From an archaeon (GTDB taxonomy: Archaea; Nanobdellota; Nanobdellia; SCGC-AAA011-G17; GW2011-AR17): a stretch of DNA of 64,000 nucleotides. Below, in pieces: positions 28,229-54,832 of the stretch. A program made the position numbers and the translations under genes. The notes under the pieces are model-generated. The model had not been told where the DNA came from and searched no databases. It saw only the letters and a program-made list of their open reading frames with translations. The stretch is from positions 61,978-125,977 of the forward strand of contig JBDRRK010000008.1 in NCBI GenBank assembly GCA_043825775.1, in the 5' to 3' direction. The stretch's first letter is position 1, and each line of letters starts with the position of its first letter.

Positions 28229-29368
28229 ATGAGGATTGCAATTGTTAGTATGTTCTATAAACCTACTATTGGAGGCGTAGAGAAAGTAATTGAGGTTTTA
28301 GCAAAAAATTATATTTCTAAAGGACACAGTGTTGATGTTTATTGTTGTGATTGTGATAAAAATAAGAGAATTAAAAAGAAGTTTGAAATTATTGAAGGAG
28401 TTAGGGTTTATAGATCAAGGTACTGGTTAAGGTTATCATTTAATACACATATTTTTCCAGGAGTTATATGGGATTTAATGACAAAGAAATATGATGTTAT
28501 TCATTCCCATGTTGGTGCACATGATTATGTTCTTTTCGCTGGATTGGCATCAAAGTTAAAAGGGGTTCCACATGTTCATACTACTCACTGTCCTTGGACT
28601 GATAAGTTTAGACCTTTAGCTGTTCGTATTCCTCTCTTCTTTACTGATAATTTTTTTAATTATATTTCTTTTAATTTGTGTGATAAGATTATTGCAATTA
28701 CACCTTGGGAAGTTCCTATTTTGAAGAAATGGGTTAAGGAAGATAAAATACAAGTGTTGCATAATGGTATGGATGGAAGATTGTTCAAGAAAGTTGATGG
28801 AAGTTCTTTTAGGAAGAAAGTTATGAAAGATCCCAATAATAAGTTAGTTTTGTTTTTTGGTCGTTTACATCCAACAAAAGCCCCTGATAATTTTGCTAAG
28901 GTTGCAAGAATGATTTGTAATGAAAGAAATGATATTGAGTTTGCCATAATTGGTCCTGATGAAGGTGAAATGGAAAAAGTAAAAAAAATAGTTAATAATC
29001 ATGATAGGATACATGTTACAGGACCTTGGCCTTATGAGGAAATTGAATATATGTATCAAGGTTCTGATCTTTATGTTTTAAGCTCTTATAGAGAGGGTTT
29101 GCCTTTAACATTGTTTGAGGCTATGGCCTCTGGGTTACCAGTAGTTGCAACTCCTGTTAATGGTGTTCCTTATGAAATGAAGGAGGGAGTTAATGGTTAT
29201 TTGGTAGAGTATGGAGATTTAGAAGCTATGAAAGAAAAGATATTGAAGATATTAGGTGATGAGAAATTAGCAAAGAAGTTTTCAGAGAATAATATTGAAA
29301 AAGTTAGAGGATATACTTGGGATAATATTGCTGCTGCAACTTTGAAAATTTATCAGGAGGAAATATGA
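28229..29368 (+). CDS. Glycosyltransferase family 4
   Basis: REGLPLTLFEAMASGLPVVATPVNG motif is present. Confidence 0.75.
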   Translation: MRIAIVSMFYKPTIGGVEKVIEVLAKNYISKGHSVDVYCCDCDKNKRIKKKFEIIEGVRVYRSRYWLRLSFNTHIFPGVIWDLMTKKYDVIHSHVGAHDYVLFAGLASKLKGVPHVHTTHCPWTDKFRPLAVRIPLFFTDNFFNYISFNLCDKIIAITPWEVPILKKWVKEDKIQVLHNGMDGRLFKKVDGSSFRKKVMKDPNNKLVLFFGRLHPTKAPDNFAKVARMICNERNDIEFAIIGPDEGEMEKVKKIVNNHDRIHVTGPWPYEEIEYMYQGSDLYVLSSYREGLPLTLFEAMASGLPVVATPVNGVPYEMKEGVNGYLVEYGDLEAMKEKILKILGDEKLAKKFSENNIEKVRGYTWDNIAAATLKIYQEEI

Positions 29369-30738
29369 AAGTTTTGTTAGTCTATCCAAACATTGTAGAA
29401 TCTCCTAAAGATATCTCTATTGGTTTAGGCATATTGTCATCGTTGTTGAAGAAGAATAATCATGAGGTTGATTTAATTGATTGTACATTTGGAATCGATG
29501 ATGAGGAAATTGAAGATAAGGTTAAAGAGTTTAATCCTGATTTGGTTGGAGTTAGTGCAGCTACTAATGATTTTAATAATGCCATTAGAATTTGTAAATT
29601 AATTAAGAAGGTTAAAGATGTGAAAATAGTTTGTGGAGGTTATCATGCAACTGTTGCTCCGGAAGATATTTTTATGTATGACTGTTTTGATGTTGTTGCT
29701 ATTGGTGAAGCTGAGCGTTCTTTTTTGGAGTTGGTTGAGAATTTAGATAAAACTAATATTAAAAATATGTGGTTTAGGAATGATGGTGAAGTGATAAAAA
29801 ATGATGTGGGTGATTTGTTACAAGATTTAGATTCATTGCCTTTTCCAGATAGAGAACTGTTTGATTATCAAAAATATATTAATTCTAACAGAGGTTTGGC
29901 TACTTTTATGTCTAGTAAAGGTTGTCCATTCTTGTGTACTTATTGCATAAATAAAGTTTTAATTGGTAAGTATAAAGGCAAGGGAAAGTTTTTGAGGTTT
30001 AGAAGTGTTGACAATGTTTTAAAGGAGATTAAGGAAGTTGTTTCAGAATATAAAGTTAAAGAGATTGAATTTTATGATGATACTTTTACATTGGATAAAG
30101 AAAGGTTGAAAGATTTTTGTAAGAGATATAAGGAAGAGGTTGGTTTGCCTTTTTACATTAATGCTAGAGTTAATGCTGTTACTAAGGAAGATTTTGAACA
30201 TTTAAAAGATGCTGGTTGTGTTAGAGTTTCTATTGGTATTGAGGCTGGTGATGATTATATTAGAAATAAAGTATTGAAAAGAAACCAGAAAGAAGAAGAT
30301 ATAATTAATACATTTAAATGGGCTAAAGAGGTTAGTTTGAAGACATATTCTTTTAATATGATTGGTATTCCTTTTGAGGATATGGCTAGTATAAAGAAAA
30401 CAATTGCATTAAATAAAAAAATAAAACCTGATTATGTAGGTGTTTCAATATTTAATGCGTTTAAAGGAACTGAATTGTATGATCTTTGTTTGAAAAATGG
30501 TTGGTTAGCACAGGGTTATTCAAAATCTTATTTTCAGTCTACAAATGTAAAACATCCTAATTTTACATTGAAGAGGTTGAAGAAGATTAGAGATAGGTTT
30601 GGTTTTGAGGTGTATAAAGATTCAGACAAGAAAAGAGCTTATATTGATTTAATTGATAAGAAGATGACTAGAGTTCCAATGTATACTAAATTAAGAAGTG
30701 TTTTGATTGAAAAGGGAGTTAAGAAATGGGTGGAATAA
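29365..30738 (+). CDS. Cobalamin (B12)-binding radical SAM protein
   Basis: N-terminal B12-binding domain (MKVLLVYPN…GGYHAT). CPFLCTYCIN motif is present. Confidence 0.8.
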   Translation: MKVLLVYPNIVESPKDISIGLGILSSLLKKNNHEVDLIDCTFGIDDEEIEDKVKEFNPDLVGVSAATNDFNNAIRICKLIKKVKDVKIVCGGYHATVAPEDIFMYDCFDVVAIGEAERSFLELVENLDKTNIKNMWFRNDGEVIKNDVGDLLQDLDSLPFPDRELFDYQKYINSNRGLATFMSSKGCPFLCTYCINKVLIGKYKGKGKFLRFRSVDNVLKEIKEVVSEYKVKEIEFYDDTFTLDKERLKDFCKRYKEEVGLPFYINARVNAVTKEDFEHLKDAGCVRVSIGIEAGDDYIRNKVLKRNQKEEDIINTFKWAKEVSLKTYSFNMIGIPFEDMASIKKTIALNKKIKPDYVGVSIFNAFKGTELYDLCLKNGWLAQGYSKSYFQSTNVKHPNFTLKRLKKIRDRFGFEVYKDSDKKRAYIDLIDKKMTRVPMYTKLRSVLIEKGVKKWVE

Positions 30739-38729: not shown

Positions 38730-39434
38730 ATGCAAGAAGGTTCACATCAAATGATGGGTTACGACAGGGCTTCAACAATGTTCAGTCCTGATGGTAGATT
38801 ATTACAGGTAGAGTATGCTAAAGAGGCTGTAAAACAAGGTTCAACTGCAATTGGAATAGTGTGTAAAGATGGTGCTATTTTAATCGCTGATAAGAGAGTT
38901 TCTGATGAATTGATTATTTCAGATGCTGTTGAAAAGATTTTTCAAGTGGATAAGCATATTGGTGCTACTGCTGTTGGTTATGTTATGGACGGTAGAGTAT
39001 TGATTGAAAGAGCTCAATTAATTGCACAACAACACATGGTTACTTATTCAGTTCCAATGGAAACATTGAATTTGGTAAAAGAAGTTTCTGATATAAAACA
39101 GTCTTATACACAGTATGGTGGAGCAAGACCTTTTGGTGTTTCAGTATTGTTTGTAGGTGTTGATGATACAGGACCTTTACTGTATGTTACAGAACCAACT
39201 GGTATATTTTTTCAGTACAAAGCTACTGCTGTTGGAGAAAACTCAGATGCAATCAAACAAATTTTGAGAAAAGAGTATAATGAAAATATGTCTGTTGAGG
39301 ATGGTATCAAATTAGCAGTTAAAGCATTGAAAAAAGTTATGGTAAAAGATTTTGATGCAAAAAGAATTGATGGTGCTCTAATTTCACAGGCAACAAAAGA
39401 ATATTCAGTTATTGATAGGAAGAAGTTGAAATAA
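38730..39434 (+). CDS. psmA: Proteasome subunit alpha
   Basis: GYDRASTMFSPDGRLLQVEYA α-subunit signature is present. 234 aa. Confidence 0.9.
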   Translation: MQEGSHQMMGYDRASTMFSPDGRLLQVEYAKEAVKQGSTAIGIVCKDGAILIADKRVSDELIISDAVEKIFQVDKHIGATAVGYVMDGRVLIERAQLIAQQHMVTYSVPMETLNLVKEVSDIKQSYTQYGGARPFGVSVLFVGVDDTGPLLYVTEPTGIFFQYKATAVGENSDAIKQILRKEYNENMSVEDGIKLAVKALKKVMVKDFDAKRIDGALISQATKEYSVIDRKKLK

Positions 39435-39435
39435 A

Positions 39436-40137
39436 ATGGTAAATGTAGACAAAGCAATAATTGCAAGGATAAAGAAAGAAGGAGAGATCTTTGAGATTTT
39501 AGTAGATTGTGACAATGCTTTGGCTTATAGAGCAGGTACTATCGAGAGCCTAGATGATGTTCTTGCAACAAAAGATATATTTAAAGATGTAAAAAAAGGT
39601 GAAAAGGCATCAGAAACGGATATGCAGAAGTTGTTTCATACAACAGATGCTATTGAAGTTGCTAAAATCATTCTAAAAAAAGGTGATATACAATTAACTG
39701 CAGATTATAGAAATAATTTAAGAGAAGAAAAAAGAAAACAAATTATTTCTTTTATTCACAGAAATGCAGTTGATGCAAAAACAGGTTTTCCACATCCTCC
39801 ACAAAGAATTGAAGATGCAATCGAGCATTGTAAATGTAAGGTTGATGAATTTAAATCTGTTGATGCACAAGTTCAAGAAATTGTGAACAAAATTAGAGAA
39901 ATATTACCCATTAGATTTGAAGTTAGAGAATTACAAATAACTATTCCTGCTGCTTATACTGGGCAGGCTTATGGTGTTTTGAAAAAGTTTGGTAAGGTTT
40001 TAAAAGAAGATTGGTTGAATGATGGAAAGCTAAGTATGGTTTTAGAAATACCAGCTGGTTTGCAAGAGAATCTTGAAAATGAAATGAATGGTTTAACAAA
40101 AGGTGATGTTGATATTAAGATTTTAAAGAAAAAATAG
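39436..40137 (+). CDS. Ribosome maturation protein SDO1/SBDS homologue
   Basis: MVNVDKAIIARIKKEGEIFEILVDCDNALAYRAG is typical of the SBDS N-terminal FYSH domain. Conserved superoperon position. Confidence 0.8.
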   Translation: MVNVDKAIIARIKKEGEIFEILVDCDNALAYRAGTIESLDDVLATKDIFKDVKKGEKASETDMQKLFHTTDAIEVAKIILKKGDIQLTADYRNNLREEKRKQIISFIHRNAVDAKTGFPHPPQRIEDAIEHCKCKVDEFKSVDAQVQEIVNKIREILPIRFEVRELQITIPAAYTGQAYGVLKKFGKVLKEDWLNDGKLSMVLEIPAGLQENLENEMNGLTKGDVDIKILKKK

Positions 40138-40148
40138 GAGACAAAAAA

Positions 40149-40850
40149 ATGAGTAAATTATTAGTAGAAGACAAACAAATTGTGGTTCCAGGGGATATCC
40201 TAGCTGAAGGAATGGATTATCTACCATCATATGGAGCTACTAGAGACAATGATAAAATTGTTTCAATGCAAGTGGGATTGGCTAGTATTAATGGAAGAGT
40301 AATTAAAATTATTCCTCTAAGTGGAAGATATGTTCCAAAAAAAGACGACACAGTTATTGGTTATGTTAAGGATCTAACTTTTAGTTCTTGGTTTATTGAT
40401 GTAGGCTATGCTTATGATGGAAACTTAAACATGAAAGAAGCTACCTCTGATTTTATTGAAAGAGGAGCAAGTTTGAGTAAATATTTCAAACCAGGAGATA
40501 TATTAATAACAAAGATAGTTAATGTGACAAAAGAAAAAGCAATTGATCTATCAATGAAAGGACCAGGCTTAAGAAAAATAACTTCCGGAAAGGTTATTGA
40601 AATTACTCCTTCAAAGGTTCCAAGAGTTGTTGGAAAACAAGGAAGCATGATTTCAATGATTAAAGAGAAAACAGGTTGCTCAATATTTGCTGGTCAGAAT
40701 GGAAGAATTTGGATTAGTGGTGAGAATCCTGAAATGGAACTTGTTGCAACTAAGGCAATTAATTTGATTGATGAAAGGTCACATGTAACAGGCTTAACTG
40801 ATTTAGTTAAAGAGTTCTTAGACAGTAATGTTAAGGAGAATAAAAAATGA
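40149..40850 (+). CDS. rrp4: Exosome complex RNA-binding subunit Rrp4 (S1 + KH)
   Basis: N-terminal VVPGDILAEG, S1 and KH (GKQGSMISMIKEKTG) segments are present. Confidence 0.85.
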   Translation: MSKLLVEDKQIVVPGDILAEGMDYLPSYGATRDNDKIVSMQVGLASINGRVIKIIPLSGRYVPKKDDTVIGYVKDLTFSSWFIDVGYAYDGNLNMKEATSDFIERGASLSKYFKPGDILITKIVNVTKEKAIDLSMKGPGLRKITSGKVIEITPSKVPRVVGKQGSMISMIKEKTGCSIFAGQNGRIWISGENPEMELVATKAINLIDERSHVTGLTDLVKEFLDSNVKENKK

Positions 40851-41554
40851 AATATACAAAAAGGCATGATGGAAGGAAATTTGATGAAATTCGGCCTATA
40901 GAAGCTAAAGTTGGTGTTGTGAAAAATGCTTTAGGTTCTGCAATGTTTAAATGTGGAAAAACTATTGCAGTAGCTGCTGTTTATGGACCAAAAGAATTGT
41001 TTCCTAAACCTTTACAAGATCCTAATAAGGGTAAATTAAGATGTACATATAATATGATGGCTTTTTCAGGTGCTGGAGACAGAGTTAGACCTGGACCAAG
41101 CAGAAGGAGTAAGGAAATTGGTGTAGTAACTGAAAATGCATTAAATACTGTTTTAGATTTATCAGCATTTCCAAAAACAATTGTTGATGTACACATTGAA
41201 TTGATTCAAACAGATGCAGGAACAAGATGTGCAGGTATTACTGCTGCTGCAATGGCATTAGCTGATGCAGGATTTAGAATGAAAGATATGGTTGCTGCAG
41301 TTGCTTGTGGTGTTGTTGGTGGAACTCCTTTAGTAGACTTAGATAAAGTTGAAGAGGATTATGAACATGGTTCTGTTGATATACCAATCGCAATGATGCC
41401 AAGAACTGGAGAAATAACTTTACTTCAGTTAGATGGTGAAGTGGATAAAGAAGACTTAATGAAAGCTATTGAACTTGCTAAAGTTGGATGTATGCAAGTT
41501 TATGAAGTACAGAAAAAAGCCTTGAAAGCAAAATATGAGGGGGCAAAAAAATGA
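40847..41554 (+). CDS. rrp41: Exosome complex exonuclease Rrp41 (RNase PH family)
   Basis: RNase PH fold (…RHDGRKFDEIRPIEAKVGVV…DAGTRCAGITAA…). Translationally coupled to rrp4 and rrp42. Confidence 0.85.
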   Translation: MKYTKRHDGRKFDEIRPIEAKVGVVKNALGSAMFKCGKTIAVAAVYGPKELFPKPLQDPNKGKLRCTYNMMAFSGAGDRVRPGPSRRSKEIGVVTENALNTVLDLSAFPKTIVDVHIELIQTDAGTRCAGITAAAMALADAGFRMKDMVAAVACGVVGGTPLVDLDKVEEDYEHGSVDIPIAMMPRTGEITLLQLDGEVDKEDLMKAIELAKVGCMQVYEVQKKALKAKYEGAKK

Positions 41555-42321
41555 TATCAAAAGCATATATCCAAGATATTGTAAAAAAAGGATTTAGAGA
41601 AGATGGAAGAAAATTTGATGAATATAGGTCTATTGAAATTGAATATGGTATTTCTTCAAAATCTGCAGAAGGTAGTGCAAGAGTAAAAATTGGAGATACT
41701 GAAGTTGTTGCAGGAGTAAAAATGGATACTGGTAAGCCATATCCTGACAAACCTAATGAAGGTTCAATAATGGTTAATGTTGAATTAGTACCTTTAGCTT
41801 CTGAATTATATGAGGCTGGTCCTCCAGATATTAATGCAATTGAATTGTCAAGAGTTGTTGACAGAGGAATTAGAGAATGTCATGCAATTAACTTTGAAAA
41901 ATTGTGCATTGAAGAAGGAGAAAAAGTTTGGATGATTTTCATAGACATCTATCCAATAAATGCAGATGGTAATTTAGCAGATGCTTGTGCATTAGCTGCT
42001 ATGGCTGCTTTGAAAGATGCAAAGTTTCCAACATTAACTGATGGAATTGTTGATTATAAAACAAAAACCAATAATCCATTACCTCTACAAAAAGATCCAG
42101 TAGAGTGTACAGTATGGAAAGTAGCTGATAATTTTTTAATAGACCCAACTATTGATGAAGAATTCGCATCTGATGCAAGATTAACCTTTGCTTTCACTAA
42201 TGAAGGTAAAATTGCTGCTATGCAAAAGGGTGGACAGAGTCCATTAACTGCAGAAGACATTGATAGGATGGCTATACTTGCTGCTAAAAAAACAGAAGAG
42301 TTAAGGAGTAAACTGAAATAA
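41551..42321 (+). CDS. rrp42: Exosome complex subunit Rrp42 (inactive RNase PH-like)
   Basis: …[18 protein letters not shown]… RNase PH-like. Follows rrp41. Confidence 0.85.
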
Positions 42322-45964: not shown

Positions 45965-46834
45965 GTGTTACAACTGAAAAGAGGGGTTTTCCCAAGAGGA
46001 GGGATTTATATGATTGTCAAAGAAGACTTTTTAAACAATTTAAGGCAACTATTCAGCTTAAATTTATATGAAGTAAAAATTTGGACTGCTTTGTTGTCAA
46101 GAGGAATTTCTACTGCTGGTGAACTATCTGAAATAGGTGATGTTCCAAGAAGTAGGGCATATGATATTCTTGAGAGTTTAGAGAAAAAAGGATTTATTGT
46201 AATGAAGTTAGGTAAACCAATTAATTATATTGCAGTTGAACCTCAAGAAGTTCTTGAAAGAGCAAAAAAACTTGTAAATAAAAATGCAAAAGATCAAGTT
46301 AAGAAATTGGATAGTTTGAAAGGTGGAGAACTATTGAAAGAACTAGATTTGTTGCATAAACAAGGTGTAGAATTTATTGAACCAAGTGATTTAAGTGGAG
46401 CTCTAAGAGGTAGACATAATATTTATACACATATGGAAACTTTAGTAAAAAATGCAAAACAATCTGTTTATATTATGACTTCATCTAAAGGTATGGTTAG
46501 AAAAGTTGAAGCAATGAAACCAGTATTGCAAGCACTTGCTAAGAAAGGAGTTGATATTAGAATTGCAGCTCCAATTGATAAAGAAGATATGGAAGTTGCT
46601 AAAGAGTTAATGGAGTTTTCTAAAGTTAGACATACTGATAAGGTTAATGCTAGATTTTGTGTTGTAGACAACAAAGAATTGATGTTTATGGTAACAGATG
46701 ATAAAGAAGTACATCCAAGCTATGATATTGGAGTTTGGGTAACTACTCCTTTCTTTGCAGAAGCTCTTGGAAATATGTATGATATTTCCTGGAAAAACAT
46801 GAAAGATGCAAATACTAAAGTGAAAACCTTATAA
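45965..46834 (+). CDS. TrmB-family transcriptional regulator (winged HTH), putative
   Basis: YEVKIWTALLSRGISTAGELSEIGDVPRSRAYDILESLEKKGFI is a TrmB-type wHTH. The true start may be the internal Met at 46010. Confidence 0.55.
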   Translation: MLQLKRGVFPRGGIYMIVKEDFLNNLRQLFSLNLYEVKIWTALLSRGISTAGELSEIGDVPRSRAYDILESLEKKGFIVMKLGKPINYIAVEPQEVLERAKKLVNKNAKDQVKKLDSLKGGELLKELDLLHKQGVEFIEPSDLSGALRGRHNIYTHMETLVKNAKQSVYIMTSSKGMVRKVEAMKPVLQALAKKGVDIRIAAPIDKEDMEVAKELMEFSKVRHTDKVNARFCVVDNKELMFMVTDDKEVHPSYDIGVWVTTPFFAEALGNMYDISWKNMKDANTKVKTL

Positions 46835-46857: not shown

Positions 46858-47745
46858 ATGAAAGTAAATAATTATTTCTTTGCAGGATTAGATTTTATAT
46901 TTGATAAAAATGATAATATATGGTTTTTAGAAGCAAACTATGCTCCACATGGTGCTAAGAATATTAAAAAAACTAGTGGTAAGGAAGAGATTACTAAAGA
47001 AATTGCAAGATTAATGAATAAAGATAAAGGTGAAAAGTGTGTTTTGGTCTCTAGAAGCTTAACTGGTAAAGAAGAGGGAGAGAATAGTGCCTGGTTTGCA
47101 TTGGAACTAGCTAAATATGTAAAAAATTTAAGATTATGTTATTGTGATGAAAATCAAAATAGAAAAGGTAAAATGAAAGATATTAATGGGAATTTTTTTA
47201 GTCCAAGTATTATTTTTAGGTATAATAGACCTTTAACAAGTGCTTTTGAGAAAAAAGCATTGGTTATTAATTCTAATAAGGTTAGAAATTTAGTTAATAA
47301 TAAGATGTTGACCTTAAAAGTTGTTAGAGAGAATACAAAGGTTAATGTTCCAAAAACATTTTATGTTAAAGATACAAAAGAATTGAAAGAGTTGATTTCT
47401 GTTAATAGGGATGTGTTTAAAGAGGGTTATGTTGTAAAACCCATTGACCAAAGTCAAGGAAGAGGGGTTTATGTACTGAAAAAAGGAGAAAGAGTCCCGC
47501 AAATTAAAGAAAAAGAAATTGTTGAAGAGAGAATTGTTCCTAAATTGTTACATCAACATTATTGGGACGTTAGAGTGTTTGTGATAAATGGCAAGTACAT
47601 AGGTGGGGAAATGCGTAAGTCTAGAACAAGGGTTACTAATGTTTCTAGAGGTGGAAAACCTTCAAAATTACCAAAAAAACTACATGATAGATTGAAAAAA
47701 CCAGCCCTAGAAATTGTTAAAGCTATTGATAGGTATTGTGAATAA
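46858..47745 (+). CDS. ATP-grasp-like protein (RimK/GshB-type motifs in apparently permuted order)
   Basis: YVVKPIDQSQGRGVYVLK, DVRVFVING and NVSRGGK are central ATP-grasp motifs. The usual C-terminal …iwFLEANyaPhG strand-motif occurs at the N-terminus (residues 11–33). Confidence 0.45.
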   Translation: MKVNNYFFAGLDFIFDKNDNIWFLEANYAPHGAKNIKKTSGKEEITKEIARLMNKDKGEKCVLVSRSLTGKEEGENSAWFALELAKYVKNLRLCYCDENQNRKGKMKDINGNFFSPSIIFRYNRPLTSAFEKKALVINSNKVRNLVNNKMLTLKVVRENTKVNVPKTFYVKDTKELKELISVNRDVFKEGYVVKPIDQSQGRGVYVLKKGERVPQIKEKEIVEERIVPKLLHQHYWDVRVFVINGKYIGGEMRKSRTRVTNVSRGGKPSKLPKKLHDRLKKPALEIVKAIDRYCE

Positions 47746-48807: not shown

Positions 48808-48817
48808 TTTATAAATA
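48808..48817 (+). promoter_or_regulatory. Putative TATA box upstream of the Tfx-like regulator and giant surface protein gene
   Basis: tttataaata lies about 36 nt upstream of the 48853 ATG. Confidence 0.3.
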
Positions 48818-48852
48818 ATGATATAAGTATTATAAGTTATATTACTTATACT

Positions 48853-49044
48853 ATGAGTCTGACAAAGAAAGAATTGGAAGTATTGGAGTTAAAGAAAAAA
48901 GGGTTTACTCAGATTCAAATAGCTAAGAAGCTGAATATTTCACAGCCAGCTGTTTCTTCATTTTATAGAAATGCAATGTTGAAGATTAAGGATAGTTATG
49001 AAACTGTAAAGCTAGCAAAAAAACTTAGGATAAAAGATGAATAG
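48853..49044 (+). CDS. Tfx-like / sigma70-region-4-type HTH DNA-binding protein
   Basis: LTKKELEVLELKKKGFTQIQIAKKLNISQPAVSSF is a LuxR/Tfx-type HTH. Overlaps the start of the giant ORF by 8 nt. Confidence 0.5.
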   Translation: MSLTKKELEVLELKKKGFTQIQIAKKLNISQPAVSSFYRNAMLKIKDSYETVKLAKKLRIKDE

Positions 49045-52000
49045 GGAACTAATGAAATACATGATTGTATTGATTTTGGTAGTTGGAGGCGTATTAGTTT
49101 TCTTTGGAGACTTTACGGGTTATACTTTCATTGAGCCAAATACTATTGAGTTTGATATTAATAATTCTTGGAATCTTTCAAATGGGTTTACAAGAGTTAG
49201 TCAGGGAATAGATATATTTGATAATGATATTATTATTGTAGAAAATAAATCAGTTGTTGATTTAACTAGTTATAATTTAACTAATGGAACTATTTATGTT
49301 GATTTAGTTATTGATGAAATGGTTGTTGATAGTGAGATAGTTAATTATGGTTCTAATGAGACTACACCTCCCAAAATTGTTGAAGAACCAGTGAATGAAA
49401 CCATTGTTGATACTGAACCAGTGAATGAAACAATTCCTGAAGAACCTTTAATTATTCTTGATGAGATAATAGAAACTCTAGATGGAACTAATGCTCCAAC
49501 ACATACACAGCCTCTGTTGAATGCTTCAAGTAATAATAATTTAACAACTGATAACTTAACAGTATATAACCAATCAACTGCTGATTTGGATGGTGATTCT
49601 GTTAAAAATATTTACAACTGGTATATGAATGGAAGTTCAATTACTGTTTTGAACATGCCTTTTGAAGGAGGTTCTTTGAATGGAAGTGGTGTTGCTGATG
49701 GTGCAAAGGATTATTCTGGATATAATAATAATGGTACAATCAATGGACCTGTTTGGTTAAGAGATGGAGGCTATGATGGATTTGGAGCTTACAAGTTTAA
49801 TGGAATTGATGAAGAGATAGATATTCCTTATGATAGTTCTTTTGATTTCAATAAAACTGGGGAGTTTACAGTTATGGCTTGGATTAAAACTGATACTTTA
49901 GTTAATGATAATGGAGATATTGTAAATCATTATATTATTACTAATAATAATCGTTCTTGGTCTCTACAGATTAGAACTAATGTTGCTAGATTTGTTGCTT
50001 GTGAAAATGGTTCTCTAGTAAGTTGTCAATATGCTACTGGAACAACCAGTATTGGTAGTAATAGCCCTTGGATTCATCTTACAGGAAAATGGGATGGAAG
50101 TAATATTTATGTTTATGTTAATGGGGAAAGTGATGATGCTACTCCTCCGGCTTTAACCTCATTGTATCCTATTGATTCTAGTAGATCTTTAGAAATTGGT
50201 TTTGATAGAGTTTCTGATGATTTTAATGGAAGTATTGATCAAGTTATGATTTTTAATAGAAGTTTATCTGATGAACAGATTAGATTAATGTATCAAAATA
50301 GAACAGATATGATACATTCAGCTGAAACTAAATTGAATGAAAATTGGACTTCAATTATTACTCCAAATGATGGTTGGGTTGATGGTACTTCTCTAATAAG
50401 TAATTCATTAGTTATAACTGGTGCGGCTAATAATGTTCCAAGGGTATCTAGTATTTTGTTGAACTCTACTTCAAGTAGGAATAATACAAATGGTTCATTG
50501 CAAGTATCATGGGTTTTCTCAGATGATGATGGTGGAGATTCTGAAATGGATAATGAAACTCAATGGTATCAAAGAATGACTAATGGAAGTGTTATTAAAA
50601 ATACTACATTTACTAATCTTACATTTATTAGTGCTGGAAATCTGACTCCAACAGAGACTTTGAATTTCTCAGTAAGAGTTTATGATGGAACAGACTGGAG
50701 TGCATGGAGTTCCAATGCTAGTATTTATATTACAAAGTATAATAATTTATCAAATGTATCCTTAGGGATATATCCTAGTCCATTAAATATAAATCAGAAT
50801 ATATATGGATATTGTAATTTTACTGATATTGATGGGGATTATGAAGGCTTAGGAAAATATAGATGGTGGAAAAATGGAACTACACTACTTGAAGAAAGAG
50901 ATCTTTCACAATTATTTTTGATGCACTTTGATTTAGAAGGTTCTGCTTATAACAATACAGTGGATAATGAAAGTGCTGTAAATGTTACTGGACTGACTAA
51001 CTTTGTTGGAAAATATGATAGAGATGCATTTGTAACTACAGGAGATAGACTTCAGTTTAGAAGTGCTGGAAATATAAACAAAAGTTCTGGAACCATATTG
51101 TTCTGGCTACAACCTAATTGGAATGATACTGATGAGATTAATGAAAGGCCATTTATAGAAGATTCTAATGGTGATTTTTATATTTACTTTGAACCAGTTT
51201 CAGATCAAATAAAAGTTAATATTACTGTTAATACTACTTATATATTAACAACAAACACAAGTGCATTGAGTGGAGTATTGAATGATAATGAATGGATACA
51301 TGTTGCTATAATGTGGAATTTGAGTACTGATTTAGTTCAGGTTTATTTGAATAATACATTATATGCTAATAATACTGAAGATGTTGATTGGAATACTTCT
51401 TATCCAAATATTGGAACAAATATTGATATTGGACAGACAAATACTGGATCAAGAAGTATAAACTCTCATTTAGATGAATATGCAATATATGATAAACCAT
51501 TGTTGAGGAAACACCTAAGTGATTTTATTAATAGAAGTTTCCCAATAATGAATAATGAAATTTTCTTAGATAGTATCAATATCCAAGATGGAGATAATAT
51601 TACATTTGAATGTGTTCCTTATGATGACATTGAATATGGATTAGGAATTAATTATACAGTAACCATACCAAGCAATACTATTAGTAACACATATGCAAAT
51701 TTAGCTAAATCTATTATTGCTGGAGATGGTGTTGTAGAGTTTGTTGCAAATTTCAGTTCAAATTATGGAATTGAGGCTATATGGCTTGAAATAAATGAGA
51801 GTGGAACTACAACTGCAACAAATGAAAGAGAATTTGGGTATTTAATTGATGATTTAAGTTACTTTGATTGGGCAAATGATTTCAGAACAAATGAAAGTGA
51901 TGATGTTAATATTGTAGAAACTACATCTGGATATATCTTGTATGCAGGAAATATTTCATATAATTTTACAACACCAAATACAGATTATGTTTATGTACGA

Positions 52001-54832
52001 AGATATATAGACTCTATAAATCTAAGTGATTATTTCCAATTACATTATTATATGAAGGCTGATACTGCAAATGTAGTCCAAACAAGAATAAATGTTTATA
52101 ATACAAGTTCGGATGGAACTATGACTTCTTGTGATTACCCTAATTATCCAAATATAGGTACAACTGGATGGCAAAAAGTAACTTTAAACATTTCCTCTTT
52201 TAATAAAACAGACTGTGATTTAGGGAGTATTAGCTTGATAAAACTTACAGTTAATGATATAACTGATACTGATACTTTTAGTGGCTCCTTTTTAATAGAT
52301 GAAATTTATCTTACCAATGGAAGCAATAAACCTACTGATGGCCAGATTAAATTTAATTATAAACCATTAACTGATTTAAGTTCCAATGAAAATGTTACAT
52401 TGAGAATATTTGCAAGGGATGTTACTGGATATAATACTTCTACTGTTTGGTATAATCTAACTGTTGATGGAGATGTTCCTAACCTCCTTAATTTTACATA
52501 TTCCAATGATTATGGTTATTCATATAATACAATTATCTTAAATGGTACTTTTAATGATACTACAACACCTGATTATTTTTGGTTTGAAGTTGAAATAGAT
52601 GGTGCAAGGCATAATACTAGTTCAAGGCCTATTGGTTATTATCTTGATACTTTTGATGATCCTAATTGGTTGTATGCCTCTGGATTGGTTAAAGGAACAA
52701 ATGTAAGTGTTGAAAGGGTTGAATCAGGATTTATAGATAAGGGTATGAATATTAGTTATAATTACCCTGATTCTGAAGCAACTGATTACTTCTTTTTAGA
52801 ACATAAAATGAACCCAATGGTTGTTGCTGATTATGATGAATTAAAATTCCAAATAAAATCTGATAATTTGAAGTATCACCAAATGAGAATGGATTTATGG
52901 TGCGAAGATGAAAAAGCTCCTGAAGAATATAGAGTTGTAGCAAGACAACATTTAGCAAGAACTACTGATTGGGAAGAGGTTGATTTCAAAGAAGCTGAAT
53001 TCTTTGTTGATTCTCCAACATGTTCAATAAACTCAACTAATATAACCACAATGAAATTACAGTTTGGGGATTATAATAATAGTGATAGTGGGGGGGGTAA
53101 TTTAACTATAGATGAAATGTATTTTATTAAAAGAGATAAACCTATTTCTAATATAGGCCAAGTTCCTTTTATATTTGAATGGGTAAATCATAATGAATCT
53201 GGAAACTTTTCATTTAGGATTTGGTTTAATGATAGTACTGGACATGAAAACAAAAGTAATTGGATAAATATTACTCAAAAAACATTTAGTTCTGCTACAG
53301 GAATTATTGCAGTTGATAATGGCTCAATATTAGATGAAATCTCAAATTGGAAGGATAATACTATACAAACTAATTATACCTCTCCAAGTTATGAAGAAAA
53401 ATTAAAATTTAAGAATATAACTCTTGATTTATTAGATGGAATTAAAAATAATAATATAAATGAAAGTAAATTAAATGATGTTGCAGGACAGTTAGATTCA
53501 TTTGGATATGAACTAGTAAATTATAGTGATAATGTTACAGGATATAATTATTATATTATAAGGGAGAATAGTATAAGTAAGGGTTGGGGTGGCTTTGTCT
53601 TTAATCCTCACACATATTCAAATTTAATTTTAGAATCTCCACATCCAATTTGGGATACAAATTCAAGTATTGTTAGCTCAATTATTTTCACAGAGATGTT
53701 TCCTAAGGCATTAGTTGTTTCTACATCTTATAGATATGCGAATCCAAATGATATTAGTGATGCGGGGCATAGTGAGGATATGCTATTTGCTGCAGTTCAT
53801 GACGCATTGATTGAAAATACAACTGATTCAATTGTTATGCAAATACATGGGTATAGTGCAAGTGGATTGAATGATTCTACTTGGCAAGTTATTATTAGTG
53901 ATGGAGTTGGTTTAGAAAAAACCCAAGAAATGAATGATTTGGTTAATAATCTTTCTAATGCACAATACAAAACCTGTGTTTGGAATTACAATTGTAGTTT
54001 CTATAGTGCTACTAATGAGGCTAGTGCCCATGATACAAAAAGATCAGGTGGACAGTTTATACATGTTGAGTTAAATACATCAATTAGAGTTTATGATAAT
54101 GAAAGAGAAAACATAACTAGGATATTGACTGACTTTAGAGAATGGTTACCTCCTAATGTTACTTTAGTTAGCCCTAGTGATACTGCAACATTTAATACAA
54201 GCAATATTACTTTTGAATGTAATGCTACTGATGCAAAGAATGTTACAAAGATTACTCTTTATATCAATAGTAGTACTGGTTTTGATAGCAATAGTTCAAG
54301 TATAATGAATACAAATATTACAAATGTAAGCTTTGTTGAATATTTACCTGCTGGATCTTATACTTGGAATTGTTTGGGAAGAGATTTAAGTGGTAATGTT
54401 AATTTTGCAAGTAGTAATTTTACATTTACTATAAATGGAAGTGCTGTCACTGAAACTACTACTCCTGAAACAACAACTGGATCTTCAAGCTCTTCAGGTA
54501 CTGAATCAAGAGATATCTCTGAAAATAAAACAGAAAAAGAGGAGTTTATTGAAGAGGAAGAGAAGGAAATTAAAGAAGATGAAAGTATTGTTGAAGAGAT
54601 TATTGAAGAAGAAATTGAGGAAGAGGGAAGAATTTTAGAAAATTATTATTCTCAAATTGGAGCAGGGGTAATTGTAATTTTCCTTATTGTCATTTTATTA
54701 TTTTTAGTTATAATACTAATCAAGAGATTGAAAAATAGAAAGAAATCTGATTCATTACATAGGAAATTAGTTCTTTACTTAAAGAAAAGAAAAAGAAATA
54801 AGAGAAAGGTTAAGAGAAAGATATCTTATTGA
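49037..54832 (+). CDS. Giant N-glycosylation-sequon-rich cell-surface protein with LamG/ConA-like lectin domains, N- and C-terminal TM segments
   Basis: 1931 aa. N-terminal hydrophobic segment (YMIVLILVVGGVLVFFG) and C-terminal TM (GAGVIVIFLIVILLFLVIILI) followed by a K/R-rich tail. Thr/Ser linker and acidic EEE stalk precede it. At least two LamG-like jelly-roll regions (…FTVMAWIKTD…WIHLTGKWDG…VYVNGE… and …GTILFWLQPNW…WIHVAIMWN…VYLNNTLY…). Dozens of N-x-S/T sequons. Confidence 0.7.
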   Translation: MNRELMKYMIVLILVVGGVLVFFGDFTGYTFIEPNTIEFDINNSWNLSNGFTRVSQGIDIFDNDIIIVENKSVVDLTSYNLTNGTIYVDLVIDEMVVDSEIVNYGSNETTPPKIVEEPVNETIVDTEPVNETIPEEPLIILDEIIETLDGTNAPTHTQPLLNASSNNNLTTDNLTVYNQSTADLDGDSVKNIYNWYMNGSSITVLNMPFEGGSLNGSGVADGAKDYSGYNNNGTINGPVWLRDGGYDGFGAYKFNGIDEEIDIPYDSSFDFNKTGEFTVMAWIKTDTLVNDNGDIVNHYIITNNNRSWSLQIRTNVARFVACENGSLVSCQYATGTTSIGSNSPWIHLTGKWDGSNIYVYVNGESDDATPPALTSLYPIDSSRSLEIGFDRVSDDFNGSIDQVMIFNRSLSDEQIRLMYQNRTDMIHSAETKLNENWTSIITPNDGWVDGTSLISNSLVITGAANNVPRVSSILLNSTSSRNNTNGSLQVSWVFSDDDGGDSEMDNETQWYQRMTNGSVIKNTTFTNLTFISAGNLTPTETLNFSVRVYDGTDWSAWSSNASIYITKYNNLSNVSLGIYPSPLNINQNIYGYCNFTDIDGDYEGLGKYRWWKNGTTLLEERDLSQLFLMHFDLEGSAYNNTVDNESAVNVTGLTNFVGKYDRDAFVTTGDRLQFRSAGNINKSSGTILFWLQPNWNDTDEINERPFIEDSNGDFYIYFEPVSDQIKVNITVNTTYILTTNTSALSGVLNDNEWIHVAIMWNLSTDLVQVYLNNTLYANNTEDVDWNTSYPNIGTNIDIGQTNTGSRSINSHLDEYAIYDKPLLRKHLSDFINRSFPIMNNEIFLDSINIQDGDNITFECVPYDDIEYGLGINYTVTIPSNTISNTYANLAKSIIAGDGVVEFVANFSSNYGIEAIWLEINESGTTTATNEREFGYLIDDLSYFDWANDFRTNESDDVNIVETTSGYILYAGNISYNFTTPNTDYVYVRRYIDSINLSDYFQLHYYMKADTANVVQTRINVYNTSSDGTMTSCDYPNYPNIGTTGWQKVTLNISSFNKTDCDLGSISLIKLTVNDITDTDTFSGSFLIDEIYLTNGSNKPTDGQIKFNYKPLTDLSSNENVTLRIFARDVTGYNTSTVWYNLTVDGDVPNLLNFTYSNDYGYSYNTIILNGTFNDTTTPDYFWFEVEIDGARHNTSSRPIGYYLDTFDDPNWLYASGLVKGTNVSVERVESGFIDKGMNISYNYPDSEATDYFFLEHKMNPMVVADYDELKFQIKSDNLKYHQMRMDLWCEDEKAPEEYRVVARQHLARTTDWEEVDFKEAEFFVDSPTCSINSTNITTMKLQFGDYNNSDSGGGNLTIDEMYFIKRDKPISNIGQVPFIFEWVNHNESGNFSFRIWFNDSTGHENKSNWINITQKTFSSATGIIAVDNGSILDEISNWKDNTIQTNYTSPSYEEKLKFKNITLDLLDGIKNNNINESKLNDVAGQLDSFGYELVNYSDNVTGYNYYIIRENSISKGWGGFVFNPHTYSNLILESPHPIWDTNSSIVSSIIFTEMFPKALVVSTSYRYANPNDISDAGHSEDMLFAAVHDALIENTTDSIVMQIHGYSASGLNDSTWQVIISDGVGLEKTQEMNDLVNNLSNAQYKTCVWNYNCSFYSATNEASAHDTKRSGGQFIHVELNTSIRVYDNERENITRILTDFREWLPPNVTLVSPSDTATFNTSNITFECNATDAKNVTKITLYINSSTGFDSNSSSIMNTNITNVSFVEYLPAGSYTWNCLGRDLSGNVNFASSNFTFTINGSAVTETTTPETTTGSSSSSGTESRDISENKTEKEEFIEEEEKEIKEDESIVEEIIEEEIEEEGRILENYYSQIGAGVIVIFLIVILLFLVIILIKRLKNRKKSDSLHRKLVLYLKKRKRNKRKVKRKISY

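Follow-up and report, generated by a model that had tools for sequence, protein, structure and literature searches.

The window analysed here, a 64-kb stretch of archaeal DNA with a G+C content of ~30%, carries two overlapping genes encoding proteins of 63 and 1931 aa, sizes that the sequence-only reading had given correctly together with the length of the overlap. The stop codon of the first gene, which encodes a helix-turn-helix (HTH) protein, and the start codon of the second, giant open reading frame share the 8 nucleotides ATGAATAG, through which the giant gene would be translationally coupled to the HTH gene. Because the genes flanking the pair are housekeeping genes on the opposite strand, the operon consists of the HTH and giant genes alone. 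An identical giant protein is found in NCBI, labelled 'LamG-like jellyroll' and originating from an archaeal MAG, and the pair is best read as a two-gene operon, probably producing a single transcript, of a DPANN-type archaeon resembling Nanoarchaeota/Woesearchaeota. The genes and the elements preceding them are as follows.

48808..48816, plus strand: TATA-box-like element TTTATAAAT, candidate archaeal promoter of the operon (read from the sequence)
48824..48850, no strand assigned: candidate operator with repeated TATAAGT half-sites (motif and palindrome comparison)
48853..49044, plus strand: HTH gene, 63 aa (ORF list); GerE/LuxR-type HTH protein, Tfx-like in its N-terminal part, NCBI MFH1972271.1 (Pfam GerE)
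49037..54832, plus strand: surface-protein gene, 1931 aa, NCBI MFH1972272.1 (ORF list)

The HTH regulator, its upstream region and related cassettes

The claim of a LuxR/Tfx-type HTH holds in that the 63-aa protein matches Pfam GerE above its cutoff (43.7 bits, cutoff 23.5, E 2e-11) and has Tfx (TIGR00721) as its top NCBIfam match, yet at 42.3 bits, under the cutoff of 60.25. The alignment covers only positions 7-63 of the 137 in the Tfx model, and because the C-terminal half is missing and the score lies under the family cutoff, the protein is not a full Tfx. The HTH type is common to Tfx, a DNA-binding protein of Methanothermobacter, and to the GerE/LuxR solo HTHs; unlike Tfx, the protein described here is 63 aa long and lacks the C-terminal domain, and, in contrast to both, its gene always directly precedes and overlaps that of a surface protein. 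The HTH protein lacks a ligand-binding domain and is therefore not a quorum-sensing LuxR.

The HTH start codon lies 45 nt downstream of the TATA-box-like element, and most related loci have a TTTATA(T/A)A element 30-50 nt upstream of the HTH start. Within the candidate operator, a perfect palindrome, TATAAGTTATATTACTTATA, occupies positions 48831-48850 and ends 2 nt before the HTH ATG. The candidate operator is the sole match to TATAAG-N6-10-YTTATA in the window, and the motif is found at the equal position in loci L001, L002, L004, L005, and L009. Perfect palindromes with arms of at least 7 are present in 38 of 51 unique HTH upstream regions, drawn from related loci that are not phylogenetically independent, as compared to 9.4 +/- 2.9 in shuffles and 37 of 169 (22%) real AT-rich upstream regions (Fisher p 1e-11). 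At least two half-sites occur in 42 of the 51 HTH regions and in 5 of the 169. Since the palindrome partly overlaps TATA-like sequence, its conservation could in part reflect constraint on the promoter and not on an operator. In L007 and L008, both the recognition helix (ISPAAVSD in place of ISQPAVSS) and the arms of the palindrome (TTAACTT/AAGTTAA) are different. The HTH protein probably binds the TATAAGT/ACTTATA palindrome as a dimer, at a site flanked by the TATA-like box and the start codon of the HTH gene, and such binding, which we infer together with the sign of regulation, would make the operon autoregulated.

The pairing of this HTH with a sequon-rich secreted protein recurs in ~50 DPANN loci, with overlaps of -4, -8, or -11 nt, and the recurrence of the start/stop overlap backs the coupled expression proposed earlier; cassette loci were found in genomes (7) and metagenomes (65). 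The giant protein P0003, for instance, is preceded by an 83%-identical HTH, likewise with an 8-nt overlap. Over the cassettes the HTH remains 55-83% identical (56-83% across eight loci) while the cargo varies, and the cargos of related cassettes include beta-helix and beta-propeller proteins and range from 230 to 3063 aa. Of the unique downstream proteins, again from related loci, 48 reach 150 aa or more; 43 of these have an N-terminal hydrophobic segment and 40 have at least 3 sequons per 100 aa, and the median for cassette cargos is 4.40 sequons per 100 aa versus 0.93 for upstream ORFs. A varying cargo behind a conserved HTH and promoter palindrome suggests an autoregulated cassette. GerE-type HTH proteins are common 'solo' regulators, including in archaea (PMC5413776), and the HTH gene could on that ground be merely adjacent to the giant gene, or act in trans on other genes with no specific link to its neighbor. 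This is highly improbable, as the start/stop overlap is kept in ~50 loci despite a complete change of cargo, and the palindrome, present at a single place in the window, is a conserved feature of the HTH promoter.

Architecture of the giant protein

The following features were assigned to the 1931-aa protein.

49037..49114, plus strand: signal peptide or signal anchor, aa 1-26, hydrophobic core aa 7-24 (Kyte-Doolittle)
49115..49486, plus strand: conserved N-terminal, membrane-distal domain, aa 27-150, motif F-D/N-x-N-x-S-W (phmmer)
49604..50326, plus strand: LamG domain 1, aa ~190-430 (Pfam Laminin_G_3, best stretch aa 269-415)
50327..50956, plus strand: Ig/fn3-like spacer modules, aa 431-640 (repeated matches in P0004 and P0028)
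50957..51556, plus strand: LamG domain 2, aa ~641-840 (second Laminin_G_3 stretch)
51749..52327, plus strand: middle module A, aa 905-1097, tentatively a CBM-like beta-jelly-roll
52547..53140, plus strand: middle module B, aa 1171-1368, paralogue of module A
53330..54136, plus strand: metallo-amidohydrolase-like domain, aa 1432-1700, catalytic core ~1515-1700
54152..54364, plus strand: Big_7 bacterial-Ig-like domain, aa 1706-1776 (Pfam)
54449..54625, plus strand: Thr/Ser linker, then Glu-rich acidic stalk (read from the translation)
54656..54829, plus strand: C-terminal TM helix, aa 1874-1895, and Lys/Arg-rich cytoplasmic tail (hydropathy, composition)

A Kyte-Doolittle scan found only two hydrophobic segments, at aa ~7-24 and aa 1874-1895, the latter with a hydropathy maximum of 3.82 and followed by a 34-aa tail containing 17 K/R. 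The Thr/Ser linker TETTTPETTTGSSSSSGTES (aa 1805-1824) and an E-rich stretch (aa 1833-1863) both precede the C-terminal helix, so that the two anchors, the linker, and the acidic stalk are all present as first described. No match to PGF-CTERM or another sorting signal was found in the protein with NCBIfam. The predicted topology is that of a type-I membrane protein, exported by Sec and held by the single C-terminal helix with the basic tail inside the cell. From the membrane outward, the ectodomain would consist of the acidic helix, the Thr/Ser linker, Big_7, the amidohydrolase-like domain, the two CBM-like jelly-rolls, LamG 2, the Ig-like spacers, LamG 1, and the N-terminal tip domain.

The N-terminal domain is without a Pfam match and is similar to cargos of cassettes L001, L004, L007, and L008 (phmmer, E 1e-17 to 6e-26). 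It includes the coding tandem repeat noted earlier at 49381-49440, which is real and slight, with two 30-nt units identical at 24 of 30 positions that were not reported by TRF at a score of at least 30. Both of the proposed LamG/jelly-roll regions were detected, Laminin_G_3 matching in two stretches (E 4.9e-29, 101.9 bits, cutoff 27.6) and LamG domain 2 aligning to the LamG1 profile with an hhalign probability of 96.7% (E 3e-10). The spacer modules recur downstream of LamG domains in homologues, with a weak fn3 match (E 0.11), and Big_7 (E 1e-7, 32.9 bits, cutoff 24.1) is common to several homologues and cassette cargos. In total, 221 homologues were found at E < 1e-5, mainly LamG giants of Nanoarchaeota/Woesearchaeota; LamG domain 1 is covered by 119 of 119 homologues, and no homologue covers >38% of the protein.

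The core of the giant protein is thus of an already-known type. The SPEARE proteins of Ca. Nanohaloarchaeum antarcticus greatly exceed the giant protein in size and are defined by domains for serine protease, adhesion, and restriction endonuclease, none of which was detected in the giant protein with Pfam or NCBIfam. They too are very large DPANN surface proteins with a presumed role in host attachment (mentioned in PMC7443923). LamG-like proteins are 'generally abundant in DPANN' (PMC5498576), and large sequon-rich examples have been read as putative host-attachment glycoproteins (PMC7443923, PMC5498576), with which the adhesin proposed in the sequence-only reading agrees. The LamG/ConA-like lectins of Ca. 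Nanohalobium constans and ARMAN Mia14 are likewise secreted, large, organism-specific, and rich in sequons, and share with the giant protein the Laminin_G_3 domain(s), Ig/PKD-like spacers, and a small AT-rich archaeal genome; the giant protein differs in that its C-terminal half is unique, containing an FGase/PghP-like domain and the pair of CBM-like modules. A coupled dedicated HTH or a promoter palindrome was not found described in these DPANN LamG papers (PMC7443923, PMC5498576), and neither the conserved HTH pairing nor the hidden enzyme-like domain seems to have been reported before.

No relatives of middle modules A and B were detected, nor any sequence-level match to a CBM family. They are tentatively termed CBM-like by comparison of a low-confidence model (pLDDT 54), derived from two sequences, with the beta-jelly-rolls of CBM28, CBM30, CBM11, CBM4/6, and CIA30. 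The domain at aa 1432-1700, also without a Pfam match, yielded a confident model with an FGase/PghP/M14-like fold and belongs to a large family that has no Pfam model. The catalytic-type, family-invariant residues H1536, D1540, D1575, H1604, G1605, E1678, and R1684 are all kept. N-formylglutamate amidohydrolase (PF05013; PDB 2q7s, 2odf) and PghP/YndL (PDB 3a9l, 5onj), which belong within the Zn-dependent M14-like hydrolase fold, are 10-16% identical to the domain with TM-scores of 0.43-0.60, a relation so remote that activity and substrate are guesses. Unlike these enzymes, the domain lies outside the cell as part of a giant membrane protein and has an extra N-terminal three-helix sub-domain. 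Together, the two CBM-like modules and the amidohydrolase-like domain account for the ~40% of the protein that lay beyond the first reading, and suggest that it does more than adhere.

Sequons and the glycosylation island

The sequence-only reading had put the number of N-glycosylation sequons at well over 50, and 104 N-x(not P)-S/T motifs (51 NxT, 53 NxS) were counted, or 5.39 per 100 aa. They lie in every ectodomain module and are absent from the signal, TM helix, and tail. Composition could in principle account for such numbers, as Asn makes up 10.8% and Ser+Thr 18.4% of the protein and the genome is AT-rich; the excess would then be a by-product with no special glycosylation. However, 1000 composition shuffles gave 37.0 +/- 5.2 sequons with a maximum of 54, and the reversed motif [ST]-x-N is at expectation (38), an asymmetry also seen across the 48 cassette cargos (median 4.40 forward versus 2.09 reversed). 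The other 57 ORFs of at least 100 aa in the window average 0.52 sequons per 100 aa, with a maximum of 1.72, leaving the giant protein as the only strongly sequon-rich one. The count therefore exceeds composition by ~13 SD and the local background ~10-fold, and an origin in composition is effectively refuted by these statistics. Up to 104 ectodomain sequons would be available for N-glycosylation, which we infer to take place.

The upstream glycan-biosynthesis island postulated earlier does exist, at ~419-31604 of the window, where there are genes for two PMT_2 GT-C, four GT1/GT4, and two GT2 glycosyltransferases, RmlC, RmlD, a sugar nucleotidyltransferase, an epimerase, a Wzx-like flippase, and methyltransferases, and five radical-SAM genes. 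The AglB/STT3 signature WWDYG is absent in all frames of the window, which contains no oligosaccharyltransferase gene. The island ends 17 kb upstream of the HTH/giant unit, with housekeeping genes between, and the giant protein may be a substrate of its products.

Adhesin, envelope protein, or surface enzyme

Haloarchaeal S-layer glycoproteins (Halobacterium/Haloferax Csg) are heavily N-glycosylated and carry an N-terminal signal as well as a Thr-rich, O-glycosylated linker beside a C-terminal anchor. The giant protein shares the signal, the dense N-glycosylation potential, and a Thr-rich linker beside a C-terminal anchor, with acidic sequence near the membrane. With its standing as the sole strongly sequon-rich protein in the window, this could make it an S-layer or main envelope structural glycoprotein, its lattice held by the C-terminal helix and its glycans serving envelope stability. 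Such a role is improbable, as there is no full-length homologue and no S-layer family match in Pfam or NCBIfam. Furthermore, structural S-layer proteins are normally lineage-conserved and not mosaics of lectin, CBM, and enzyme modules, related cassettes carry very different cargos, and at least one genome, SI047_bin88, has two cassettes (L004 and L008). The giant protein also differs from Csg in having no PGF-CTERM/archaeosortase signal and in being coupled to a regulator gene.

We favor, with a probability of roughly 0.6 for the explanation as a whole, a glycan-shielded lectin-type adhesin with a surface enzyme, encoded in an HTH-autoregulated two-gene operon. The converse weighting, in which host adhesion is secondary or absent, is unlikely but the nearest of the alternatives: like modular bacterial surface hydrolases, the protein would be primarily a surface-tethered enzyme, directed by its LamG and CBM-like modules to a polymeric substrate so that the cell can scavenge nutrients or remodel its envelope. 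CBM-like modules are typically found together with enzymes, the catalytic-type residues are all kept in a membrane-proximal domain, and other family members are secreted stand-alone or lie inside giant PKD/Ig or T9SS-sorted proteins. On the other hand, the domain makes up only 14% of the protein and, like the middle modules, is found in none of the other cassette cargos, nor in the 119 best LamG homologues. These modules are thus not part of the conserved cassette logic, and the enzyme domain appears to be an accessory on what is otherwise the scaffold of an adhesin. In the favored adhesin, the enzyme domain would hydrolyse surface polymers at an amide bond (gamma-glutamyl, N-acyl-amino-acid, or of the peptide-stem type), although its position near the membrane and not at the tip is a poor match for direct attack on the wall of a host. 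Through its LamG and CBM-like modules, the protein would bind to a substrate or to the cell of a partner or host, recognizing carbohydrates or glycoproteins there, and the archaeon may live as an episymbiont.

The two-gene unit and its surface protein

The unit consists of a 63-aa helix-turn-helix (HTH) gene followed by the gene for a 1931-aa protein, here called the giant, both lying where the sequence-only reading had placed them, and a candidate operator separates the HTH start from a TATA-like box:

48808-48816, TATA-like box TTTATAAAT, upstream of the HTH start
48824-48850, candidate operator TATAAGT...TATAAGTTATATTACTTATA, between the TATA-like box and the HTH start
48853-49044 (+), HTH gene, 63 aa
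49037-54832 (+), gene for the giant, 1931 aa

The 8-nt overlap claimed for the two genes could be read directly at the junction, ...AAAGATGAATAGGG..., so that the HTH stop codon (TAG) and the ATG of the giant share the 8 nt ATGAATAG. No further gene belongs to the operon; its neighbors are a MiaB-like radical-SAM gene in divergent orientation on one side and a convergent ThiI/THUMP gene on the other. Also around it are genes for an Orn/Arg decarboxylase and a deoxyhypusine synthase and, 1-3 kb upstream, for a TrmB-family regulator (46010-46834) and a RimK-like ATP-grasp protein of the glutamate-ligase type (46858-47745). There are no tRNAs or Rfam elements around the locus, and no terminator-like sites were returned by a sigma-70 promoter/terminator scan, a bacterial model inapplicable to archaea.

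A hydropathy scan of the giant located just two hydrophobic segments, at aa ~7-24 and aa 1874-1895, in agreement with the N- and C-terminal anchors previously claimed. The elements said to precede the C-terminal transmembrane (TM) helix are also present, the Thr/Ser linker as TETTTPETTTGSSSSSGTES and the acidic stalk as a Glu-rich stretch at aa 1833-1863. Lys and Arg make up 17 of the 34 residues in the tail beyond the helix, and because the basic flank of a TM helix lies on the cytoplasmic side (the positive-inside rule), the tail is predicted to be cytoplasmic and the 1.85-kaa body to lie outside the cell. Searches of NCBIfam and Pfam found neither a PGF-CTERM nor any other sorting signal in the giant, whose C-terminus is a plain TM helix plus basic tail.

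The giant carries 104 N-x(not P)-S/T sequons, or 5.39 per 100 aa, where 'well over 50' had been estimated from the sequence. The possibility that this excess is an artefact of composition is refuted, because 1000 shuffles of the protein's own residues gave 37.0 +/- 5.2 sequons with a maximum of 54, the mirror motif S/T-x-N is present at the expected level with 38 occurrences, and the remaining ORFs of the window average 0.52 sequons per 100 aa, all far lower than what is seen. Sequons occur in every extracellular module, and there are none in the signal, the TM helix or the tail. The coding tandem repeat claimed at 49381-49440 does exist, as two 30-nt units identical at 24 of 30 positions, but it falls below the TRF reporting score and is insignificant. 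Long near-identical direct repeats involving the giant's gene, of the kind that would form DGR-type template and variable repeats, are absent between 40000 and 64000 of the window.

Pfam Laminin_G_3 matches the giant in two stretches (E 4.9e-29; 101.9 bits against a gathering threshold of 27.6), and the second of these (LamG2, aa ~640-840) aligned to a profile of homologues of the first (LamG1, aa ~190-430) with an hhalign probability of 96.7%, bearing out the earlier statement that there are at least two LamG-like regions. A Pfam Big_7 domain lies at aa 1706-1776, and aa 27-150 form a conserved tip domain common to the downstream proteins (cargos) of four related HTH cassettes. SPEARE-type serine protease and restriction-endonuclease domains were absent from the giant in Pfam and NCBIfam searches. 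A database search returned 221 homologues, most of them 1000-3300-aa proteins from Nanoarchaeota/Woesearchaeota MAGs, that match the giant at aa ~100-850 only, a few also at Big_7, with a best coverage of 38%; aa 900-1680 had no match among these homologues from the full-length search.

DPANN archaea typically have expanded, organism-specific sets of secreted LamG/ConA-like proteins with many N-glycosylation sites, which are predicted to be host-attachment systems (PMC5498576, PMC7443923). The giant, secreted, large, LamG-bearing, organism-specific and with its 104 sequons, is of this kind, its DPANN affiliation coming from its relatives, and the original reading of a LamG surface glycoprotein and host-attachment candidate fits it well. 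It is very probably an exported, membrane-anchored LamG surface protein in which sequons have been selected. The identical protein has an NCBI entry, MFH1972272.1, under the title 'MAG: LamG-like jellyroll fold domain-containing protein [archaeon]', which is correct as far as LamG is concerned, and proteins of this kind are known.

The glycosylation island asserted to lie upstream is real, occupying ~0.4-31.6 kb of the window (419-31604) and ending 17 kb upstream of the HTH gene and the giant. It encodes two PMT_2 GT-C proteins, six GT1/GT2/GT4 proteins, RmlC, RmlD, a Wzx-like flippase and methyltransferases, and for a glycan island it is unusually rich in radical-SAM enzymes, with five in all, three of them B12-binding (6949-8505, 24073-25422 and 29365-30738) and two SPASM-type (14143-15078 and 16180-16992). 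The AglB/STT3 signature WWDYG is absent from the six frames of the window, the large membrane proteins matching PMT_2, not STT3, and AglB may lie elsewhere in the genome. It is a reasonable inference that the island supplies glycans for the giant. An LPG_synthase_TM protein and an Asn synthase are also encoded there.

The HTH gene, its candidate operator and its cargos

The HTH protein matches Pfam GerE (PF00196) over residues 1-46 with E 2e-11 and 43.7 bits, above the gathering threshold of 23.5. The top NCBIfam match is Tfx (TIGR00721), at 42.3 bits and below the cutoff of 60.25, and the alignment covers model positions 7-63 only, which is the N-terminal HTH half. Full-length Tfx is ~137 aa long with a C-terminal Tfx domain, whereas the window protein has 63 aa and lacks that domain. 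The initial assignment therefore stands as LuxR/GerE-type and Tfx-like, but not as plain Tfx. The protein is identical to NCBI MFH1972271.1, a 'LuxR C-terminal-related transcriptional regulator'.

The motif TATAAG-N6-10-YTTATA, to which the candidate operator conforms, has no second match in the 64-kb window and recurs at the equivalent position in related loci. Perfect palindromes with arms of at least 7 nt were found in 38 of 51 unique HTH upstream regions, compared to 9.4 +/- 2.9 in mononucleotide shuffles and 37/169 in actual AT-rich sequences lying upstream of other ORFs at these loci (Fisher p ~1e-11), while two or more half-sites of the TATAAC[CT]/TATAAGT type are present in 42/51 HTH upstream regions and 5/169 controls. 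The TATA box and the left arm share sequence at most loci (cTTTATATAACC-N6-8-GGTTATATAA). The recognition helix is different at two loci, L007 and L008 (ISPAAVSD...), where both palindrome arms differ too (TTAACTT.../...AAGTTAA). Since dimeric binding to palindromes is typical of GerE-type proteins, and occlusion of the TATA/BRE or the transcription start site (TSS) is the usual mode of action of archaeal repressors, autoregulation is the most economical reading of these data, and on the strength of the upstream sequences we favor, with some reserve, an HTH protein that autoregulates its own promoter, be it positively or negatively.

A chance adjacency of the HTH gene and the giant is refuted. 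Among homologues of the giant the closest is P0003, a 3063-aa protein from another metagenome, and its gene too follows a GerE gene of 63 aa, overlapping it by the same 8 nt. The two HTH proteins are 83% identical, compared to ~40% identity over only a quarter of the length for the giants. Scans with an HTH alignment retrieved seven archaeal loci from GTDB species genomes (Woesearchaeota, Pacearchaeota, and 'archaeon SI047_bin88' twice) and 65 loci from metagenomes. Wherever downstream sequence is available, the HTH gene (59-66 aa) nearly always has a second gene behind it, at a spacing of -4, -8 or -11 nt or, in a few cases, +3. Among the 56 unique downstream proteins, the 48 of at least 150 aa were used for signal and sequon figures; 43 of these have an N-terminal hydrophobic segment and 40 have at least 3 sequons per 100 aa, with a median density of 4.40 against 2.09 for the reverse motif. 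Upstream ORFs in the same loci have 0.93 sequons per 100 aa. A reverse check of four more LamG homologues whose upstream sequence is available gave weaker support for the pairing: P0009 is preceded by an overlapping 155-aa gene with faint HTH matches and has the same synteny as P0003. A 98-aa overlapping gene before P0019/P0021 was rejected as a member of the HTH family (hhalign 9%; HTH_38 and Sigma70_r4_2 matches sub-threshold).

The cargos include LamG, right-handed beta-helix, beta-propeller and ALK-type glycine-rich domains as well as proteins with no Pfam match. They often end in a cytoplasmic PRC-barrel, identified by Pfam at L012, L032, L044 and L058 and through tail similarity alone at L016, and absent from the window giant. 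This diversity bears on whether the giant could instead be an S-layer glycoprotein, a reading that is disfavored: full-length orthologues are lacking, the protein is a mosaic of enzyme and lectin modules, the cargos are variable, more than one cassette occurs per genome, and neither an archaeosortase signal of the PGF-CTERM type nor an S-layer domain was found in NCBIfam or Pfam. A cassette, as it appears from these loci, is defined by a near-invariant GerE-type HTH gene of ~60 aa, by a candidate palindromic operator of that gene covering its TATA box/TSS, and by predicted translational coupling, through ATGA or ATGAnTAr overlaps, to a hypervariable, sequon-rich surface protein.

Several loci depart from this arrangement. 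At L009, L010, L035, L059 and L069 a +3/+4-nt gap replaces the overlap, and the cargo starts with a very basic extension of ~40 aa (MSFKTK..KIAKLEKKIK) with no hydrophobic segment in its first ~35 residues; these cargos may have a different topology. At L015, L023, L027 and L037 a hydrophobic mini-protein of 64-69 aa directly follows the HTH gene in place of a large cargo. In L003 (1-11878) the gene for P0004 (2625 aa) is preceded, with an 8-nt overlap, by a giant gene of >2250 aa whose product has a TM helix at its end, indicating that giant surface-protein genes also form translationally coupled tandems. Downstream of the LamG homologue P0011, a 2233-aa protein (L077, 7782-10271) with PT-HINT/Vint has a Hint-type architecture resembling polymorphic toxins. 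The synteny Peptidase_M48 - HTH - giant is shared by L001, L004 and the P0009 locus, and at L001 and the P0009 locus it continues downstream with a protein of ~620-750 aa, an OB-fold protein and an RFC-like AAA protein. The neighborhood in the window differs from these, suggesting that the cassette moves or that the locus was rearranged.

The enzyme-like domain and the middle modules

Some 40% of the giant is left unexplained by the LamG/Big_7 annotation, namely a domain at aa 1432-1700 and two middle modules at aa 905-1097 and aa 1171-1368. For such N/S/T-rich segments negative results of word-index searches are untrustworthy: queries with sub-segments (aa 880-1700, and the two-module alignment) missed even the giant itself and are uninformative, and the self protein was recovered by the full-length query and by exhaustive search.

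The domain at aa 1432-1700 has no Pfam match, and FGase (PF05013) is found in just one of 50 relatives, weakly (8e-5). An exhaustive HMMER search identified 918 relatives, 227 of them at E < 1e-10, of which most are stand-alone proteins of ~300 aa and some lie inside giant PKD/Ig proteins. An alignment of 50 relatives shows invariant H1536, D1540, D1575, H1604, G1605, E1678 and R1684, within the motifs E-x-P-H-P-x-x-D, A-D-x-A-H, Q-x-H-G-F and F-x-H-x-E-L. PDB sequence searches with the domain returned only noise and matched no solved structure. The AlphaFold2 model built from this alignment (pLDDT 94.1, pTM 0.92) shares, according to a fold search, a predicted three-layer alpha/beta/alpha fold with FGase/PghP-type metal-dependent amidohydrolases. 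In the model, the invariant His and Asp (H1536-x3-D1540) come right after strand 99-103, the second His (H1604) ends strand 168-175, and the Glu (E1678) lies within strand 242-249; M14/PghP-type enzymes have their metal ligands and catalytic Glu at such strand positions. The invariant D1575 and R1684 likewise come directly after strands or inside them. The domain is probably a metal-dependent amidohydrolase, as predicted from motifs and model, of a large uncharacterized family, and the odds that it is an active hydrolase in the giant are about even. Any particular substrate is a more doubtful proposition, and the closeness of a glutamate ligase gene to a PghP/FGase-like hydrolase domain may be a coincidence.

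Local phmmer/hmmsearch comparisons found no such domain in the 56 cassette cargos or in 119 LamG homologues. This absence from all related cargos counts against a reading in which the giant is a surface enzyme first and an adhesin second, which is plausible for the window copy in particular. The C-terminal part of the domain has a 62% identical counterpart in a partial 631-aa protein from a second archaeal MAG (P0122, NCBI MFH1456435.1), so the enzyme module is also present in one close relative or more.

The two middle modules are paralogous to each other (25% identity, E 1e-16). Their interpretation as degenerate LamG domains was rejected, with an hhalign probability of 1.5% against 96.7% for the LamG2 positive control. 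They have no Pfam match, including any CBM family, even at E <= 10, and no relatives in the metagenome scan or among the 56 cargos and 119 LamG homologues. An AF2 model from the two sequences is poor overall (pLDDT 53.7, pTM 0.56) and all-beta, and we tentatively regard the modules as orphan CBM-like modules on the basis of this model.

Proposed expression and function

Physical contact with other cells is essential to DPANN archaea, and fast-evolving giant LamG glycoproteins are leading candidates for host recognition, yet we know of nothing reported on their regulation. In the mechanism that we propose, a single promoter would produce a short-leader bicistronic mRNA, and ribosomes ending the HTH gene would re-initiate at the overlapping ATG, so that regulator output would track translation of the costly glycoprotein, while an HTH dimer would feed back on its own promoter. 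The giant would be exported, N-glycosylated and anchored via its C-terminal helix, with the acidic helix and the Thr/Ser linker, possibly O-glycosylated, serving as a stalk. Its LamG and CBM-like modules would attach to glycans on a substrate or on a partner cell, with the amidohydrolase trimming an amide-linked envelope or nutrient polymer. For this package as a whole we estimate a probability of roughly 0.6.

A broader proposal, that the pair is an instance of an apparently undescribed DPANN-wide cassette with cross-talking regulators and, in the window copy, a recruited amidohydrolase, is speculative and on balance unlikely. Cross-talk could arise because the HTH type and the half-site are common to different cassettes, two of which lie in one genome. 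If so, the cassettes would constitute a simple network in which expression of alternative adhesins is limited by feedback or mutually exclusive, as in host-range or antigenic switching. In the window copy, the recruited metallo-amidohydrolase could cleave gamma-glutamyl or peptide bonds of a partner envelope.

Compared to the annotations and literature searched, the HTH-operator-cargo cassette, the embedded, unannotated amidohydrolase family and the orphan CBM-like modules are new. No description of the HTH-giant coupling or of the enzyme domain in DPANN was found in that literature, the coverage of which was incomplete, leaving novelty unproven. A DPANN specialist would not be very surprised, and the value lies in a testable regulatory handle on host-interaction genes: a conserved 60-aa regulator and a recognizable operator before dozens of surface-protein genes offer a concrete experimental entry point, and HTH and operator together are a sequence tag for such genes in new DPANN genomes, whatever the cargo domains. 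The amidohydrolase-like family has more than 900 representatives, is extracellular, and has neither a Pfam model nor a solved structure; its tethering to a lectin scaffold here suggests activity on envelope polymers. Should all these readings fail, the giant would still document in detail what a DPANN surface glycoprotein typically looks like.

Elsewhere in the window, five tandem genes of 233-256 aa occupy 38730-42321. A diverged 51-nt repeat (at 40868 and 41602) encodes a DGRKFDE.RP-type motif that by eye resembles RNase PH/exosome subunits.
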